DNA of 47,244 nucleotides, counting the filler, from Catajapyx aquilonaris (Eukaryota): the NCBI GenBank assembly GCA_000934665.2. It is 2 parts of 2 records of this genome, joined end to end, with 100 filler letters (N's around TTAATTAATTAA, not from the genome) between each part and the next. Parts side by side here need not be neighbours in the genome. Positions count along the whole stretch, not along the records: positions 23,768 to 47,244 come from JYFJ02005675.1; 1 more part is not named here. The stretch is one strand, 5' to 3'. Of this stretch, positions 3,038 through 47,030 are shown piece after piece; position 1 is the stretch's first letter; every line of letters begins with the position of its first letter. The notes beneath the pieces are model-generated. The model was not told the DNA's origin, did no database searches, and was given only the letters and a program-made list of their open reading frames with translations. The translations under genes and the position numbers were made by a program.

Positions 3038-3155
3038 TAGGGCTGTATACGCTGACGATAGGGCTGTATGCGCTGACGATAGGGCTGTATACGTGAAGAT
3101 ATGGCTGTATCCGCAACGAGTGAAGGTTAGGTTAGGTTAGGTTGGGTTGGGTTAG
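3038..3155 (+). repeat. Four ~21-bp tandem units (TAGGGCTGTATACGCTGACGA) followed by (GGTTA/GGTTG)n
   Basis: Read directly: units begin at 3038, 3059, 3080 and 3100, then aggttaggttaggttaggttgggttgggttag. Confidence 0.9.
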
Positions 3156-4793: not shown

Positions 4794-5081
4794 ATTATTA
4801 ATAATAATTCATACCCCGTTATCAGCCATCGGCCCTTTAGGGGGGAAATTTGTTTTACCTGGAACTCTTTGCTTTTCATTTTACTGTGCTCTTTGGGATA
4901 GGACAGGGACGGAAGGAAGCGGCTGTGGCCTATTAATTACGGAAGCAACTCCGGAATTTTCCTGGCAGGACCGTGGGAAACCACAGAAAACCACGGTCAG
5001 AGTTGCCGGCCCCGGGATATGATCCCAGGACCTCCCGATTAGCAGTCGGACGCCTTATCCGCTATGCCAACCTGCTTCGGT
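4794..5081 (-). mobile_element. Second SINE of the same family with a shorter 3' region
   Basis: Same head and body as 4143-4587, with a (TAA)n-like tail. 14-bp TSD TAAGGGAATTTATT at 4780-4793 and 5082-5095. Confidence 0.85.

Positions 5082-16222: not shown

Positions 16223-16291
<69 letters not shown>
16223..16291. repeat. (AAT)n microsatellite
   Basis: Read directly. Confidence 0.97.

Positions 16292-21587: not shown

Positions 21588-21647
<60 letters not shown>
21588..21647. repeat. (AT)n microsatellite
   Basis: Read directly. Confidence 0.97.
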
Positions 21648-33300: not shown

Positions 33301-33570
33301 TATGTCAGAAACGTAGCCACAGTTATTCAGTGTTATGTTTCGTGTGTTTACGAAGGCGTACTTTGGATAGGTGCTATTTCAGATATATCCTCTGAATTTG
33401 GAGATTACCAAAAATAAAGATGCTCCATCCAAGTGGTTGTGCCCAAGTATATCGATGGCCTGAACCGGAGGATACCTGCTGGGTCTCGGCTGATGACATT
33501 TTGTCTCTTGTGCACAGTGTGTTCGATGCATTAGTCGGAGCCTACAAACTTAGTCAGGATGAGGCAAAAA
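33301..33570 (+). pseudogene. C-terminal remnant of a Sola-type transposase
   Basis: YVSCVYEGVLWIGAISDISSEFGDY, then a frameshift in the A-run near 33410, then IKMLHPSGCAQVYRWPEPEDTCWVSADDIL. This resembles the YV.C.Y...W.IG...HP.G....WP..ED.CWV....IL tail I associate with Sola transposases. Confidence 0.5.
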
Positions 33571-33942
33571 AAAAATGCGAGCCTTGTTTTCTGGACGACA
33601 ACCACTGTGACGATGAATGCAGGTTGTTGCATATCAGGGCATCATAACTTTTCATGAAGAGATCCATATACATTAATTATGGTGCGGTGCGCACAATACA
33701 ATACTTTCCAATTTGGCCATTTTGTTACAGATTGTTTGACAGTAACTGCAGCATTAATGTTATTTTACTCAACAGTATTTAATTAGTCACATGACTTTCA
33801 CATTTCAGTTGTCACAATCTTGACTTATGTGTATAATATAGTCCTAGGTGGGCGAAAGCTACAAGTAAAACGTATTAACATGTATTATAAAGTAATTATT
33901 ATTAAGTAATCAGACAGCTGTCAGCTTCCGAGCAGGAAGGTC

Positions 33943-35055
33943 GTGTGGGGTTGGGGCTGTACACGTGCGCTAGAAGGGCCGGATAAGTTTCCCCAGTTTA
34001 CTGGCACTAGTGTCTACCTGGTACTAGTGTGCACCCATCTACGAGTGGGGACCGCAACACTCTCGCAAATCGGTGAGTTGCTGGACGCTTTCAAGGCGGA
34101 CTTTCTGTCCAGGATGGACGCTGCCATGCTGAATCTGCGTGCCTCCATGGAGGAATCCAACCGTCAAATTTTGGAGCAATTGGAGGGTCAAAAGGAGGCA
34201 ACGAAAATCCTGCGGGCAGAAAACGACCAGCTGTGGACCGAAAACACGCAGCTAAAGTCACGTATGGAGACACTAGAAAATCAATCCCGTAGAAACAACG
34301 TCATACTTCGGGGGGTGCAGGAACGTGAGGGCGAAACCTGGGCGGATGCCGAAAGCCTTTTCCGCAAAACAGTGTCGGACTATCGACTACACTCGGCGCC
34401 CGGTCAGATTGAGATCCAACGAGCGCACCGACTGGGTCCCAGGCAACAGGGACGAAACCGCCCCATTATTGCTGCACTCCTACGCTTCAAGGATAAAGAC
34501 GAGATAATCTCCAATGGAAGGAACCTCAAGGACTCTACGATTAGTCTGGCGGAGGACTTTTCGTCATTGACACGAGACAAGAGGCGACAGCTGACACCCT
34601 ACCTAAAGGAAGCCAAGATGAAGGGCAACAAAGCACGACTCAGGGTGGACAAGCTGATTGTGAACGGGACGCAATATGAATTGACGGAGGACGGCCGCGA
34701 CATCCAGATGTCCTACCGCAACTACGGGAGGCAGTTCACGGATCGCAGCTCTGACGTCACCGAGGCGGCTCCGTATGGAAAAAGGCCTCCACAATCCCCG
34801 ATGAATGTGGACAACACAGCAAAGAAACCAGATACAACGAATACCAGCCCACAGCAACAACATGAAGCTGGAGATGACCATGACCTCGTGCATGATCAAG
34901 CGGCTGCCGACCTGAGTGAACCGCCCATTGACGACGGGGAAGATTTCGTCGAGAACCAGGCGCAGTCGCACACGCTGCCCGTTGCAGCCAAGCTAAGTAA
35001 ATTTAAGCGTAACCAGCCGAAAGGGAAAGAGCCCCAGCAAGCTCCTGAGAACTAA
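33943..35055 (+). CDS. LINE ORF1 protein (coiled coil plus L1-type RRM/CTD, Transposase_22-like)
   Basis: LENQSRRNNVILRGVQE, IQRAHRLG..RPII and ISLAEDFS..TRDKRRQL motifs. First in-frame ATG is at 34114. Confidence 0.9.
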   Translation: MWGWGCTRALEGPDKFPQFTGTSVYLVLVCTHLRVGTATLSQIGELLDAFKADFLSRMDAAMLNLRASMEESNRQILEQLEGQKEATKILRAENDQLWTENTQLKSRMETLENQSRRNNVILRGVQEREGETWADAESLFRKTVSDYRLHSAPGQIEIQRAHRLGPRQQGRNRPIIAALLRFKDKDEIISNGRNLKDSTISLAEDFSSLTRDKRRQLTPYLKEAKMKGNKARLRVDKLIVNGTQYELTEDGRDIQMSYRNYGRQFTDRSSDVTEAAPYGKRPPQSPMNVDNTAKKPDTTNTSPQQQHEAGDDHDLVHDQAAADLSEPPIDDGEDFVENQAQSHTLPVAAKLSKFKRNQPKGKEPQQAPEN

Positions 35056-38000
35056 CAACTAAAATGTGTCAGTGACTCTCAGATACTCTCAACAAGTTCG
35101 CAGATAGCTTGTTGGAATATCGCGGGTACCTCGATTTTTGATCGAGCTTCTGATATTCTCAACGGGCAATCAAACTGTATAGTGCTAGGTCTGTTGGAAA
35201 CATGGTGCGCGATACCTGTGTCACTACCTTCCCTCGAGTGTCGATATTCTTTTTTTCAAATTCCGGCAGTGAAACTACACAAAGTTGGCCGGCCGGCAGG
35301 CGGAATGGTGTTACTAATTGCAAAAGCATGGGCTACCACTGTGGTGCGGTCCTCTGAGTGGTTTATTGCAGTCAAATTGAGTCTCGGTACTGTTTCCTTT
35401 GTGGTTATTCTTGTCTATTGTGTGCCAAGTGGCGATTTTGCTGACATGCTGAATGAACTTGCTTTGATGATCAATGATGTGTATGATGATGGTGACCCTG
35501 TTTTGCTGATGGGCGACTTTAACGCCCGGCTGGGCAATTATTTCTCTCAGATCAACCCTAGCATTAGTGGCCCCAACCAGTTGCTGGTTAGGGCATCCAG
35601 AGACAGTGTATTAAACCGCAGGGGCAAACTTTTTTGGAACTTTGCGTAGGATTTATCTCTTACGATAGTAAATGGTACCACCAGGTCAGATGCGAAAGGG
35701 GAATACACGTTCGTTTCACACCAAGGCTGTTCAGCAATTGACGTCATTGGAGTGTCCGAGTTGGCGTATAGCTGAACTCAGGACTTCCAAGTTCTAAATC
35801 AAATTGGATCCGACCATTTCCCAGTAGTCTTGTCCCTCACCCTTCCCATCTACCACGTTGCGGCGTATCGATCTACTCCTATAATGAAACTAACTCCTAC
35901 TTGGTCGCCGCTTGACCATCTGGCAGACAAAATAGAGGAATGGGACTTATTGGAACTTCCTAACCAGATGACCCCGGGCAATGACATTCAGGCGACATTG
36001 GATAGTTCGGCGATATCTTTCCAAGAAAACGCACAGGCTCTTTTGCGTGACCAAGGCTTACTCTACGAATTTAGACCACCCAGCCCTAATAACATTCGAA
36101 TAAACACAGCAAGATGGTACGACTCGGAACTTAGGTATAGGAAAAAACAGGTGCTTGCCAAATTAGAACTATGGCGGAAACAGCCGTCGCCGCAACTTCG
36201 CTGGAATATAGGTCAATGAATTCAGAATACAAAAACCTAAAGAAAGCTAAAGCAAAACGATATACAGCTGAAAGGCTGAAATTATTAACAGAGACAAAGG
36301 AGGCCAAAACTTTTTGGCGCATAATCAAGGAAACCGAGAGCAATAGGAACCGTGCCTCCATACCAGATGGGAATTGGTGGGAATACATAAACGCGGCTTT
36401 CGGTTCAGGTTGCTGATTCGACATGCCCTTGGAGCCAAGGCCGACGTGTAATACGAGATCGGACTTAATCCTTCTGAAATATATTTCTCAGGACGAGTTA
36501 TTGGCACAAATCAAGAAGTTGAACGGCAATAAATCAGTGGGACCCGACTTCGTATCAAATTCATTCCTAAAGATTGAATCGAAACCGTTGGTTGACTACT
36601 TGCTGGGTCTTTTCAATATGTGCCTTGACACGGCTTCGGTCCCCTCAAATTGGCCTAAAGCTCATGTGATACCGATTTACAAAAAAGGTGATCCGGATTT
36701 GCCTGCAAACTATCGACCAATAACGTTATTTAACAATATTTTTAAGCTTTACACTTCCGTTCTGGTCAAGAGACTACAAACCTGGCTTGAAACAAATGAC
36801 ACCCTCCCGGACAGCCAAGCGGCCTTTAGGCAGGGGCGTTGCTGCCAGGACCAAATCTATATACTAACTACATTGATACAGTCACGCTTGAGGAGACCGA
36901 AAGGGAAACTCTTTGCGCTATTCGTGGACTTATCGCGCGCTTTTGACAGTGTAGATCATGCCGCTTTGTGGAGGCAGTTAATTTCGGTTGGCTTACCTTG
37001 GAAATTTGTCACAACTATTAAGGACATATACTCCAAAGTTCGCCTAGTCCCGAAGTGCGCGCAAAGCGAGGAGTTAGCAGTTGCGATAGGGGTCCCGCAG
37101 GGCGAACCTCTTTCTCCTACACTATTTAATATCTTCATATCAGACATTGAGGAATACTTTACGAATAATGGCGCTCCAGGGATATCGATAGCTACAAATT
37201 GTCCGGACGTGCACCTTCTTGCCTACGCTGATGATCTGGTTCTTTTGTCAGACAATCCAGTATATTTCGAGAAGAACATAACCATTCTTCACAACTACTT
37301 TAAAACTAAAAATTTGACGATTAATTTGGGAAAGACGAAGGTAATGGTTTTCTCGAACGCCGGAAGAATGCACAGCCGGACTTTCTATTTGGACGCGGTG
37401 CCGCTGCAACAAGTTAAAGAATACACATATTTGGGTGTGCCTTTCTACAACAACGGAAATTTTAAACGTTCCTTGCAGTTCTTCACAGGGAAAGCGAAAG
37501 TGGCAATTCACGCGCTCTGGGCCACTCTATTGAAACTCAAGATAAGAGCTCTCAAGATGGCTCTCAGACTCTTCTACTCGAAGATTTTTCCGATACTGAC
37601 CTACGCGGCGCCGGTCTGGTCCTTGGGCTATTTTGAAGAGTTAGAAGCAATTTATAACCTATATATAAAGAAGTTTTTCGCACTGCCGAAAACTACCGCC
37701 GGATATTTTTTGCGACTCGAACTTAACTTAAAACCCATTCGACCGCGTTTGATCAAATTGCTCATACGGTTTCTTCTAAAATTGGGCAGAGCTGGAAGAG
37801 ACTCGCTGCTTCACAGAGCATTTACGTGCAGCCAAAGAACAGTATCGGGGCACAAGAAGTCAAAATGCTGGATAGAAAGGGCGAGGGTACACCTAGCGGA
37901 AGCGGATGCTGCTCTTGAATGCCTCGAGGATACTGATATGGCTGCATCCCTCGCTAAGCTGACCGAAAACTGTCACCGGGACGACTTGCTGAGACTTAAC

Positions 38001-38393
38001 TCAACTACACGATATGTAAACTATCTGGATGCTTGGCAAGACATCCTGAACATACCACCTTATTTGGACGGGTCTTTGCCACTTCCTATATCAAGGCTTA
38101 TTATCAATATTAAAAATAATTCACCATATATTCGGATAAAAGATCAGACTTTGAACTTAAACAATGATGAATACTGCGAATACTGCAATTTGGATGAGCC
38201 TTTCACTTTATATCATATAATTTACAGTTGCCCTATATTTGCAACCCCTAGACAAATTTTCCTAAATGATTTTCCGTCGGCCCCTGGTTTTAATTTAGTT
38301 CGAATGACCAATAACCTGACTCGCGAGGATCACTACAGCCTTTTTAACTTCACCTCGAATGTGCTCAGAAGAGTAACATTCTGTGCATATTGA
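35056..38393 (+). pseudogene. LINE ORF2 (AP endonuclease, reverse transcriptase, C-terminal CCHC), disrupted
   Basis: APE motifs WNI, ETW, GDFNA, SDHFP. RT motifs YRPI, DLSRAFDSV, GVPQG.PLSP.LFN, YADD, YLG. CEYC..H....CP at the end. Stops at 35647, 35773 and 36414, and one frameshift near 36195. Confidence 0.93.
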
Positions 38394-39399
38394 AGAAACG
38401 AGCAGTGAAATTCTTTTCCGCTTTCGCATGCGACATGCCGCTTCCCCAATTTCTTGGGCCCAGGTTATATACTGTATTTGTGAACTCTACAAGTGTTTTG
38501 GCCTTGTTTACCTGCTTTTTGTTAACTGATAACCCACACAGGCACCTCATGCTTCTTTCCTCGCCCCACCCTCCTTGAAATTAAGTTTGTATGGATGTCT
38601 CCCCCTAATGGCTTATGCCCAACGGGGTAAATTAAATATTTTTAAAAAAAATTATTAAGTAATCATATTGCTGTGCTTGTACTATTGGGATGTCGATCGA
38701 AGCAATTACATAAAAAGTGAGTTCCTACGCAATGGTTGTACTGGGGACCCAACTGCAGCCGCGGCCACCCCCGCACCATCGCAGCGGGGGCAGAGGCAAT
38801 TAGTTTCTGTAACTAGCTTCTGTGCAATGGTTGTACTGCTGCAGGAGGTTTTGCTTTTGATATGGTTCTTTGGTTGACTTAAAAATTGCAAGTGTTTCGG
38901 GTTTAGAGGTCTGATTTAAACGTGATCTCTCCGGAGACGTTATAGAGACAAAGTTCTGCCGACTATTATGAAAATCCTACTCAATGTTATGTTTCAAATT
39001 TTGTCTACTGACAAAGGTATCAATTTCCACTAGGGATTTTTGTCATAAGGGTATTGAATGAATATGTTAGAATTTTTTTGGATTTTTATCAGAGGTCATG
39101 CAAGATGGCCACTTTGCAGGAGACGTGAGTGGGGAAGGAGAAGGATCCTTCTCCTTCCCATTCATCCGAAGCGTAATCCATTCATGTCATCCACAACAAC
39201 AAGCTATTCTCTGCGCTGTTATAACCTTCGGGCCAAGAAGTAGCTGTAGCTATTTCCACCCCGCCCTCGCCACCCCCTCCACCTCGTCCACCCCAGACAC
39301 CGCCTGAACCATCTGACAACAGCGCGGGAAGGGGTGGGGGCGGGGCTAGAGACAGAGTTATCCAGGCATTCCAGCCTGTTCCAGCTTCGAGACGTTCGA

Positions 39400-41694: not shown

Positions 41695-41925
41695 TGATAG
41701 ATGCTCTGATCCTGCAAAGGACACAACTGACCAGGCACACACCATGTTGGATTGGCTTCTGTGGCGGGCGAGGTATGCGTGCTCAGCCTCTTGCCTATGC
41801 ATTTAGGAGGTAGTGATACTCTCTTCCTGTGGTGGATGTTTCAAGCCCCAGAGTTCAACAGAATCCTCTCCAGATGCCACGAATGGGCGTCATTTGCGAT
41901 TTGCTTCACCTGAATACATATTAAT

Positions 41926-42273
41926 TTGCGCTACCTTTCCGTTGTATGCGGGACTGGACTTACTTCCGGTGACTGGTCCGCATTCTTCTCCAGCCTCACT
42001 TTTAAGCTGGAGAAACTGGAGTTGGTGAACACCGTTCACTTTAAGGACGAATTCTTGTTGGCCATTACGTCCAACTGTCACCATCTGACTGATCTGACCC
42101 TAGAGAGCTGTCCTGGGATCACCATAGACGGACTGATAGACCTAGTCACTCACTGCAGGTCACTCCGATCCCTGACGGTCAACTATTGCTTTCACATCGA
42201 GGAAGGCGTTTCCTTCCGCAAGTTGCACACATGCAATACCGGTCTCCACATTCAATTGAATCAGTTGTGCTAG
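41926..42273 (+). CDS. Leucine-rich-repeat (FBXL/RNI-like) C-terminal coding fragment: terminal exon or pseudogene
   Basis: KLEKLELVN, NCHHLTDLTLESCPGITIDGL and HCRSLRSLTVNYCFHI are cysteine-containing LRR units. Possible acceptor TTCTTCTCCAG at 41993. In-frame TGA upstream at 41911. Confidence 0.6.
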   Translation: MRYLSVVCGTGLTSGDWSAFFSSLTFKLEKLELVNTVHFKDEFLLAITSNCHHLTDLTLESCPGITIDGLIDLVTHCRSLRSLTVNYCFHIEEGVSFRKLHTCNTGLHIQLNQLC

Positions 42274-42955
42274 CGATGAACTTTTCATTATGATGCGGTG
42301 CACACAATGTAACATACTATTCTGGGGGGGAAAAAAAAATTCGAACCGAAATTCATCTCAATTTTTTGCGGTGCAGTGCACATGATGTAATATGTGAAGC
42401 TGTACATAACATACTAGACCGCTTGAAAAGAACGAGCCAAAGTTCGTCATTTTATAGAGCGATATTTTTCCATATATGCCGGAACTATGAAGCCTCAACA
42501 AGACCGGTATTTTATGTTTTATTAATAATATTCCTAGTACTTTATAAATCACTATTTTGTTTATTAAAAGTATATTTTTGTGTCATTGATAGAGCCATAT
42601 TTTCATACAAGATAATATGACAGCGAACAGCAGCGTTTCTGGAATGAACCATTTTTCCAATATTAAAGGTGCGTTTACATGGTGAGTGATATGATCCTGC
42701 AATGTTGCCGAGCGATGAATCCAATTGTTTGGAGCGAAAGTAACAGTCATGATAACAATATAGATTTTCACCCCAAACTCGGCGATGACATTGCGCTCTC
42801 AGATCATTCGCATGTAAACCGTCACCTGGGAGCATATACTAGTATATGTAGTATATGTAGAACGGTATATGCTCCCTGTCTCTACTGTCTGATTTATTTC
42901 ACTCCCAACAGACATCACCAAGCCCCCGCCTTCAGAAGGCGTGGGCTTGGTGATG

Positions 42956-43195
42956 GCCTGTGCGAAGGGTTGCTTCAAGACCATATAGGTACAGTCCATG
43001 GAAGGGTGGACAGGTGGAGAAGGAGAATCTCCTTCTCCACCTGTCCACCCTTCCATGGACTCAAATTGTTTTGGACACTTTATCCTGGTCTTGAAGCAAC
43101 CCTTTGCACAGGCCCCATGGTGAAGAGGTGTGTGTGTCTGAAGGGTTGCTTCAAAACCATGATAAAGGGGCCAAAACAATTTGAGCCCCATAGTA
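42956..43195. repeat. Nested palindromes, including a perfect 34-bp inverted repeat
   Basis: 42993-43026 and 43028-43061 pair perfectly with a 1-nt loop. 42956-42983 pairs with 43086-43114. ~43056-43104 pairs with ~43141-43190. Confidence 0.9.
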
Positions 43196-43746
43196 CTTGT
43201 TACCACTCACACAAGTGGTATCACAAACATGGTGATCTCTGTGTGATAGTCATTTTTGGTAACGAACCTGAGACATCTGGAAACGTTGGTTCGTTACCGG
43301 AAATAGCAAAAAATTCTCTTACGCACCCTATACCAATGATTTGGTCGTCACACTTGCAGACTTCCGTGGGAGTGATGCACAAAAGCAGTGTGCAAAGATT
43401 CAGCCCAATCTGGCCCAATACAACACCTTCATGTATTTATTTGGACGGTAACGACGAACCAGCGCATCCACCTTGCTGTCGAGCGCACTCACTCGCTCCG
43501 ATCTCGGCTTCCATCAGCTCACGACAGCGACATCCACAGTAGTCCAGAATCGTGAAAATGCGATTGTAAATAATAGCGTCTTAATTAAACTGCTCTTGAA
43601 GTATGTAAGAATTAGGTTTGGAATGTTTTTTTGGGTCCCTGATTTATATTTTGAGGCTACTGCTAACCCAGGCCTACAAAATGTATCGAAAGCTTTGCTT
43701 CTCATTGGGGAGGTGTAGGAAGAGGGTCAATAAGCAAGACGGGGTG

Positions 43747-46409: not shown

Positions 46410-46553
46410 CATCAAGTAGTAGTGGTAGTCGTTGTCTAGTAGTAGTAGTAGTTGTTGTTGTTGTAGTGGTAGTAATACAGTAGTAATAATCACATGCACA
46501 TATCATCATTCCCTCGTTATTTTCTGGCACTCATCTTCTGGGTTATGCTGTGA

Positions 46554-46591
<38 letters not shown>

Positions 46592-46855
46592 AACCTATTA
46601 CATCACCCAGAAAATGCCAGCAAGTAAAGAGTTAAAGCTTTATTATCATCATCATTATTGTCATTGTCATCATCATTATGGAACAGACCAATCGCAATAA
46701 ATGTAATTCAAACCTGTTTATTATGTAAATGTGTTATTAATATTAATGCTATGTAAATATGTTGCATTTTATTAACTCGTTCAAATGGCTTTTTAACACT
46801 TCTCATCCTATTAATATATGTAATGACTAATGAATAACAGCTTTGTTGGTTAATA

Positions 46856-46890
<35 letters not shown>

Positions 46891-46943
46891 ACATAATATA
46901 TTGTATATTATTATTGTTATTGGGAAAATACTATGAAGAAGAA

Positions 46944-46994
<51 letters not shown>

Positions 46995-47030
46995 CAACAA
47001 CAACAACAAGAATGATAATGATAATTTTAA
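46410..47030. repeat. Trinucleotide microsatellite cluster (TAG/TTG, GAT, CAT, AAT, AAC)
   Basis: Read directly, e.g. (GAT)n at ~46557-46591 and ~46858-46890, (AAT)n at ~46945-46990. Confidence 0.95.

Follow-up and report, generated by a model that had tools for sequence, protein, structure and literature searches.

Candidate stop-codon readthrough between the two open reading frames of a LINE from Catajapyx aquilonaris and of its relatives

The window considered here, a stretch of 47,244 nucleotides (filler included) joined from 2 parts of Catajapyx aquilonaris assembly GCA_000934665.2, carries at 33913–38650 a long interspersed nuclear element (LINE, a retrotransposon lacking long terminal repeats, LTRs) whose two open reading frames, ORF1 and ORF2, lie in one frame and are parted by a single TAA. 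Programmed readthrough of that stop probably yields an ORF1p–ORF2p fusion. An earlier note on this DNA had suggested as much, and its reading gains support from the finding that the TAA is native to the family and that related elements keep their ORFs in frame across stops of leaky type, the translational step itself being deduced. The junction thus has the appearance of a viral-type readthrough arrangement in a LINE, native to its family and part of a wide pattern.

At the junction, 35041–35075 reads GCT CCT GAG AAC TAA CAA CTA AAA TGT GTC AGT GA, as earlier described, and beyond the TAA the frame of ORF1 runs on as QLKCVSDSQILSTSSQIACWNIAG. The features that matter are these:

35053–35055, plus strand: TAA, the sole stop between ORF1 and ORF2 and the proposed readthrough codon, unchanged in the majority contig
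35056–35061, plus strand: CAA CTA, a CARYYA hexamer, the leaky context of tobacco mosaic virus (TMV) type (motif per PMC4132726)
35064–35075, plus strand: an out-of-frame ATG 8 nt past the stop, opening a 3-codon mini-ORF
35113–35205, plus strand: endonuclease motifs WNI (35113) and ETW (35197), both 5′ of the first in-frame ATG

WNI starts 19 codons past the TAA (about 20 had been estimated) and, as also claimed earlier, no in-frame ATG precedes either motif, the first of ORF2 being at 35305, codon 84, beyond both. A start there would forfeit WN and ETW, of which E-T-W is invariant in all 17 rows of endonuclease alignment A1 and W-N in alignment A3. The ATG at 35064, missing from the earlier note, would be expected to catch scanning ribosomes that reinitiate. 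A shared frame would by itself arise by chance in 1 case in 3, and by composition any one stop in the element has a probability of 0.0023 of being followed by CARYYA, uncorrected for the many junctions scanned; the motif occurs at 15 of 4738 positions and in 5 of 1344 in-frame codon pairs. As in TMV-type signals (PMC4132726, PMC3159437), CAA-CUA directly follows an in-frame stop preceding a polymerase, both in the window and in the majority contig. The tobamovirus motif is, however, xxA-UAG-CAA-UUA (PMC3159437), whereas the window has AAC TAA: the stop is UAA instead of UAG, the preceding codon ends in C instead of A, and the host element is a LINE. Viral readthrough contexts include UAG-CARYYA, UGA-CUA/CGG and UAG-G (PMC4132726, PMC3159437), and there are precedents for UAA in the UAA-CAA-UUA of broad bean necrosis virus and in Drosophila headcase, where UAA is accompanied by 3′ structure (PMC3159437).

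On the scheme that we infer, a single mRNA would be translated from the ORF1 ATG, with most ribosomes stopping at TAA 35053 and releasing the 313-amino acid ORF1 protein, while a minority, likely no more than about 1%, would pair a near-cognate tRNA with the TAA, a step aided by the CAA-CUA hexamer and perhaps by downstream structure as well. Those ribosomes would make a fusion of about 1430 amino acids that carries endonuclease and reverse transcriptase (RT) and would be the working enzyme, with a linker made up of the tail of ORF1 and the 19 post-stop codons. A Pfam domain search found no protease domain in ORF2, so a fusion would probably stay uncut.

Whether the TAA belongs to the family bears directly on this scheme, as the window copy is decayed:

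35647–35649, plus strand: nonsense lesion TAG, copy-specific, a sense codon in 4/4 runs
35773–35775, plus strand: nonsense lesion TGA, copy-specific, a sense codon in 4/4 runs
36190–36200, plus strand: frameshift lesion of the window copy, near 36196, with no shift in the deeper contig of 4/4 runs
36414–36416, plus strand: nonsense lesion TGA, sense in 1/4 runs (X3), the other three contigs showing no difference

The three nonsense mutations counted in the earlier note are real; the frameshift, a fourth lesion, had been overlooked. The runs (X1–X4) are four DNA runs from one sample, probably the source of the window, and contain 50–62% of the element's words; their contigs, which are majority paths with rare variants dropped, were compared with the window over 34930–36450. 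Each run has one deeper contig that spans the junction (903 bp, 34946–35848, in X1–X3; 784 bp in X4), and that of X1 differs from the window at 22 positions, none of them between 35049 and 35086. Lower-depth pieces identical to the window sit beside the deeper contig, depth not being equal to copy number, and near 36140 there are three versions, one with a new stop of its own; together these indicate several copies. A nonsense codon of its own at 36142 in another copy of the sample indicates that the other copies are not all intact. The LINE at 33913–38650 is one decayed copy of a low-copy family of which other versions are present in the sample.

The codon test used 39 of 40 listed differences (one, seen in a single run, was omitted, and 11 further differences lie outside the list). 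Synonymous changes account for 20 of 38 changed codons against 23–30% expected (p 7e-5 to 0.003). This excess points to divergence partly under selection, so that the versions, which both carry TAA CAA CTA, do not simply share a dead ancestor. Judged from these contigs, the TAA is native to the family and not a lesion of the window copy. In the family's majority form there was seen neither a sense codon at the stop, nor an in-frame ATG, nor another frame for ORF2, the outcomes named earlier as contrary to readthrough. The caveat raised at the same time, that the TAA is a nonsense mutation (of CAA, for instance) and the active element has a single fused ORF, is therefore largely refuted and now scarcely tenable. 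In its favor are the four other lesions, the frequency of CAA in the element (30 of 1424 codons) and 3 of 268 stored proteins with the whole ORF1 core and the whole endonuclease in one chain; but the TAA, unlike the copy's lesions, is present in the majority contig, relatives have a stop at the same place, and the three fused chains belong to annotated records, two being named as arthropod genome proteins, in which predicted introns can skip a stop. Database fusion proteins were also considered as support in general and set aside: 12/268 match both profiles, but endonuclease motif I is missing from 9, and the other 3, which are complete, may be spliced gene models.

The wider pattern comes from a search of metagenome contigs with the endonuclease alignment, which gave at least 135 confirmed loci, the best 80 being analysed. 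Of these, 27 were dropped for want of a located first motif or for a break in the endonuclease within 120 codons (among them one in-frame junction, L079, and three out-of-frame, L008, L037 and L044), and the 53 retained form 42 families at 55% identity. ORF1 was sought by profile in all three frames and otherwise called as a long ORF. Where the profile defined ORF1, in 17 families, it lies in the frame of ORF2 across one stop in 15 and out of frame in 2; set against the expectation of 1/3 this gives p ~4e-6, with the reservation that kin families are not fully independent. For 16 more families the long-ORF call had to serve: ORF1 and ORF2 share a frame across one stop in 5 and across several in 1, and differ in frame in 10. 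No ORF1 call was made in 9/42. Across the 20 in-frame families there are 13 different stop-to-motif distances, from 18 to 195 nt, and 15 have no in-frame ATG before the motif; in one family the residue at the ATG site is Met in 2/5 members and Val in 3. Their stops are TAG in 11 and TGA in 9, with G after TAG in 9/11, resembling the gammaretrovirus-type UAG-G, and C after TGA in 5/9. With control stops taken from the same loci, TAG-G or TGA-C is found at 14/20 junctions versus 1/9 ORF2 terminal stops (p 0.005; the nine include the window's) and 10/64 other long-ORF stops (p 1e-5), and TAA at 0/20 junctions versus 4/9 and 26/64 respectively. In a FastTree tree, with long branches and used for coarse placement only, the window falls within a 19-row clade (support 99) in which the two ORFs of 8/9 metagenomic families share a frame across TGA, an ATG being present in 4 of the 8. 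Four other parts of the tree contain in-frame families as well, making five separate parts in all, and the distant families are of ~22–34% endonuclease identity.

Readthrough is favored because one frame is kept over many spacer lengths, across a single stop, with no need for an AUG, with TAA avoided and with viral-type contexts enriched, a pattern that, as judged from these junctions, is predicted by readthrough and not by reinitiation. Reinitiation is nevertheless the established route in the two-ORF LINEs that have been tested, human LINE-1 (L1) and silkworm SART1 (reviewed in PMC5972666, PMC5009743 and PMC10275272), the former with a 63-nt spacer and an ORF2 AUG and the latter with an overlapping UAAUG. 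The window LINE is likewise a two-ORF element, it matches human L1 proteins in the fold of ORF1 and in APE-RT, and like SART1, whose coupling needs such a structure, it is predicted to have structure 3′ of the ORF1 stop. A separate ORF2, made by termination–reinitiation or from an internal non-AUG start soon after the TAA (at one of the ATA codons, 35083 and 35104, or at a non-cognate codon), is in keeping with what has been proposed for mammalian L1, whose ORF2 initiation is unconventional and AUG-independent (PMC5009743, PMC5972666), and with the tolerance for non-AUG starts that a review passage gives for caliciviral reinitiation. The two ATA codons are in frame and precede WNI, UAA terminates efficiently, and the shared frame and hexamer would then be incidental or reflect only slow termination. 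Yet reinitiation needs no common frame, and after a long ORF it usually begins in a different one (PMC10275272), which is counted here for readthrough; nor does it predict the TAG-G and TGA-C contexts or the lack of TAA. In the window LINE there is no inter-ORF spacer leading to an ORF2 AUG before the endonuclease, as in L1, no spacer stop, and no overlapping UAAUG, as in SART1: the nearest ATG, at 35064, is outside the ORF2 frame and closes after three codons, and no stop–start overlap is present. UGGGA, the core of the termination upstream ribosome-binding site (TURBS), is absent from the 100 nt upstream in the window element and present there in 4/20 relatives. Overall, reinitiation or internal initiation seems unlikely for this element, though it is the most credible alternative to readthrough. 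We also rejected a +1 shift out of the mini-ORF (35064), for which there is no re-pairing codon and which would leave the relatives unexplained.

A different way to bypass the stop would be to remove it from the mRNA. CTAAC, which lies over the stop, and the TGAC of relatives fit a branch-point core, TAG-G fits the AG/G consensus, and CAG at 35080–35082 or 35101–35103 would be an in-frame acceptor, with TAG-G as acceptor in relatives. Splicing is nonetheless highly improbable. No joints, loose ends or part-placed contigs, such as spliced copies that had been retrotransposed might leave, were found over 34930–36450 in 4/4 runs, where rare forms would be missed; the phase of the first AG past the stop varies; a pyrimidine tract is missing from most TAG-G junctions; 0/11 TAG families have a branch motif 8–40 nt upstream; and splicing does not need the ORF1 stop to be in the frame of ORF2. 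Editing of the stop in RNA, stop-to-Trp editing being known in other systems, or a host that reads TAA as an amino acid, is the least probable of the explanations weighed. TAA occurs once in 1424 codons against 61 Gln CAA/CAG, which argues that it is not a sense codon, and three different stops are used across relatives.

Returning to readthrough, the region 3′ of the stop is predicted to fold:

35066–35175, plus strand: predicted RNA structure, first helix 10 nt past the stop; z -2.8, the pairing varying with the window folded

Of 77 windows tiling the element, the one made up of the 120 nt past the TAA has the lowest folding z (-3.5; -3.0 when re-shuffled; -2.3 with majority letters), the tiling grid having happened to start one window at 35056. 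The 10-nt spacer resembles the 7–12 nt that precede structure in viral readthrough signals (PMC3159437), and the predicted structure fits the idea that UAA needs extra help.

Several points weigh against readthrough, the case for which is drawn from sequence. UAA is the weakest readthrough codon, and in human cells UAA with CARYYA is far below UAG or UGA (PMC4132726, PMC13517186); moreover the gag-UGA-pol junction of Tca2 can fail in reporter readthrough (PMC2194720). The nine bases of stop and hexamer are unchanged at 2.4% divergence, as expected by chance, so that the hexamer is without support from conservation; the single sample behind all four runs, probably the window's source, and the rare variants dropped from its contigs limit that comparison further. 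Among the related in-frame families CARYYA is found in 0/20, CARNBA in 1/20 and CAR in 3/20. When conservation is checked in relatives, as proposed earlier, one frame across one stop is thus kept in 15/17 and the hexamer is not, and the conserved feature beyond the window family is being in frame across a leaky stop. Relatives also give no structure signal: at 80 and 120 nt, 0/20 have z <= -2 versus 4/40 controls, and since 3′ structure also serves SART1 reinitiation, that predicted in the window does not decide the mechanism. In families with ORF1 called only as a long ORF, 5/16 in frame is at chance level, the ORF1 call being unreliable. An in-frame ATG does precede the motif in 5/20 in-frame families (4/8 in the window's clade), and this quarter may use either route. 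Many database ORF2 proteins, too, start with Met just before the WN motif.

For LINEs the only suggestion of readthrough met in the open literature concerns Paramecium tetraurelia, where consensus sequences of group 3 non-LTR retrotransposons suggest it (PMC5405496); subscription papers and Repbase reports may hold earlier notes. Group 3 is described as a ciliate-specific clade (PMC5405496), whereas the nearest named relatives of the window LINE are arthropod proteins, from springtail and psyllid; the window LINE has an L1-type ORF1, and the present claim rests on 20 families and on stop-context statistics. Nothing on junction readthrough appears in the available parts of PMC2861651 (Hebe) or PMC11203168 (gastropod LINEs). 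Functional parallels are murine leukemia virus (MuLV, a gammaretrovirus with gag-UAG-pol) and Tca2-like LTR elements, in which a structural protein is made in excess and the enzyme is a rare C-terminal extension, as proposed here. They differ in that no protease domain was found in the window's ORF2 and its relatives lack the structure signal.

The anatomy of the element is otherwise that of an APE-type LINE, with APE endonuclease followed by RT in a single ORF, a target-site duplication and an A-rich 3′ end; no long direct repeat (LTR) was found within 33500–39000.

33898–33912, plus strand: left target-site duplication, 15 bp, identical to 38651–38665
33913–38650, plus strand: full-length non-LTR retrotransposon, 4738 bp, bounded by the duplication, with APE and RT domains
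34114–35055, plus strand: ORF1, 313 codons from the first ATG, with an L1-type coiled coil–RRM–C-terminal domain core and a polar low-complexity tail
35056–38393, plus strand: ORF2, ~1110 codons, with APE endonuclease, RT and a C-terminal Cys/His motif; first ATG at codon 84
36681–37442, plus strand: reverse transcriptase domain, Pfam RVT_1 E 1.4e-38 over residues 89–342 of a 658-amino acid frame
38394–38650, plus strand: 3′ untranslated region (UTR) with ATTAAA at 38631–38636 and an A7 tail
38651–38665, plus strand: right target-site duplication, 15 bp, identical to 33898–33912

The window ORF1 protein alone gives no Pfam L1 match; the coiled coil, RRM and C-terminal domain of LINE-1-like ORF1 proteins are recognized via a homologue profile of 21 rows, which matches human LINE-1 ORF1p (2ykp, E 1.8e-14) and also 2yko (E 7e-14), 2ldy and 2w7a. 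For ORF2 the Pfam endonuclease match, Exo_endo_phos(_2), is weak (E 3e-4, below cut-off), whereas L1 ORF2p is matched by the family profile across APE and RT alike (E 1.5e-66). Before its first ATG the frame of ORF1 has no stop for 68 codons, from 33910 to 34113, across the whole 5′ UTR, and a non-AUG start upstream of 34114 is possible. The element perhaps resembles the RTEX clade, having ORF1 and an APE-RT with a C-terminal Cys/His motif, and its RT and post-RT motifs look RTEX-like. Some RTEX members have an esterase ORF1 (PMC3905857), unlike the L1-type ORF1 of the window LINE.

The search for relatives brought other arrangements to light. In a neighboring LINE group, members of one family (L017:915–960, L038:730–775, L074 and L044) have an ORF1 ending ATT TTT TAA and an ORF2 in the -1 frame with no shared ATG, a candidate -1 frameshift site. 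The near-identical L021 and L022 differ ~320 nt before the endonuclease motif, one being fused to ORF1 with no stop and the other having TAG-AG-ATG, a close stop–start pair. Four ORF1 homologues (P0120, P0125, P0131 and P0157) have an NPGP motif ahead of the coiled coil, which we take to be of 2A (StopGo) type; no such motif occurs in the ORF1 of the window. Among viral contigs there were 2 loci with RT only and no junction, and a 236-kb viral contig encodes, at L001:5001–5996, a LINE-type RT relative of 32% identity with no detectable endonuclease. Long forms sought with the endonuclease alone numbered none at E <= 0.001 among 1056 candidates, which is weak evidence. Elsewhere in the window, 5004–5075 on the minus strand scores weakly as a tRNA (30.9 bits against a cut-off of 29) and may be the head of a tRNA-derived short interspersed nuclear element; a 119-codon frame at 41914–42270 with weak leucine-rich-repeat matches (E 3.5e-4) is probably a host gene exon; and a 291-codon frame at 42667–43542 has no Pfam match. 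Repeats, at 3038–3114, 16223–16291, 21588–21647 and 46415–47025, comprise a 21-nt tandem repeat of 3.7 copies and long arrays of (TAA)n, (AT)n and mixed trinucleotides.

How the second ORF of LINEs is translated is a long-standing question, and the tested cases, L1 and SART1, use reinitiation. If readthrough is correct for the elements described here, a third strategy, one common to retroviruses, would be widespread among LINEs. The ORF2 proteins of such families would then be mis-annotated, cut at the N-terminus or joined via false introns, and repeat curators should neither take the ORF1 stop as a break nor seek an AUG. The 20 junctions would also form a panel of natural candidate readthrough signals, in addition to which the window offers the rare case of UAA. 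A more ambitious proposal, put forward tentatively and with the balance somewhat against it, is that animals and other eukaryotes harbor a wide and old group of LINEs, with an ORF1 of L1 type, in which readthrough is the normal route to ORF2, and that the signal has changed between lineages among the three viral classes, UAG-G, UGA-C and, in the window, UAA-CARYYA with a hairpin, the single frame being kept. The fusion would join ORF1p trimers on its own RNA, setting the enzyme ratio and a Gag-Pol-like cis-preference, and particle assembly would then be unlike that of human L1.

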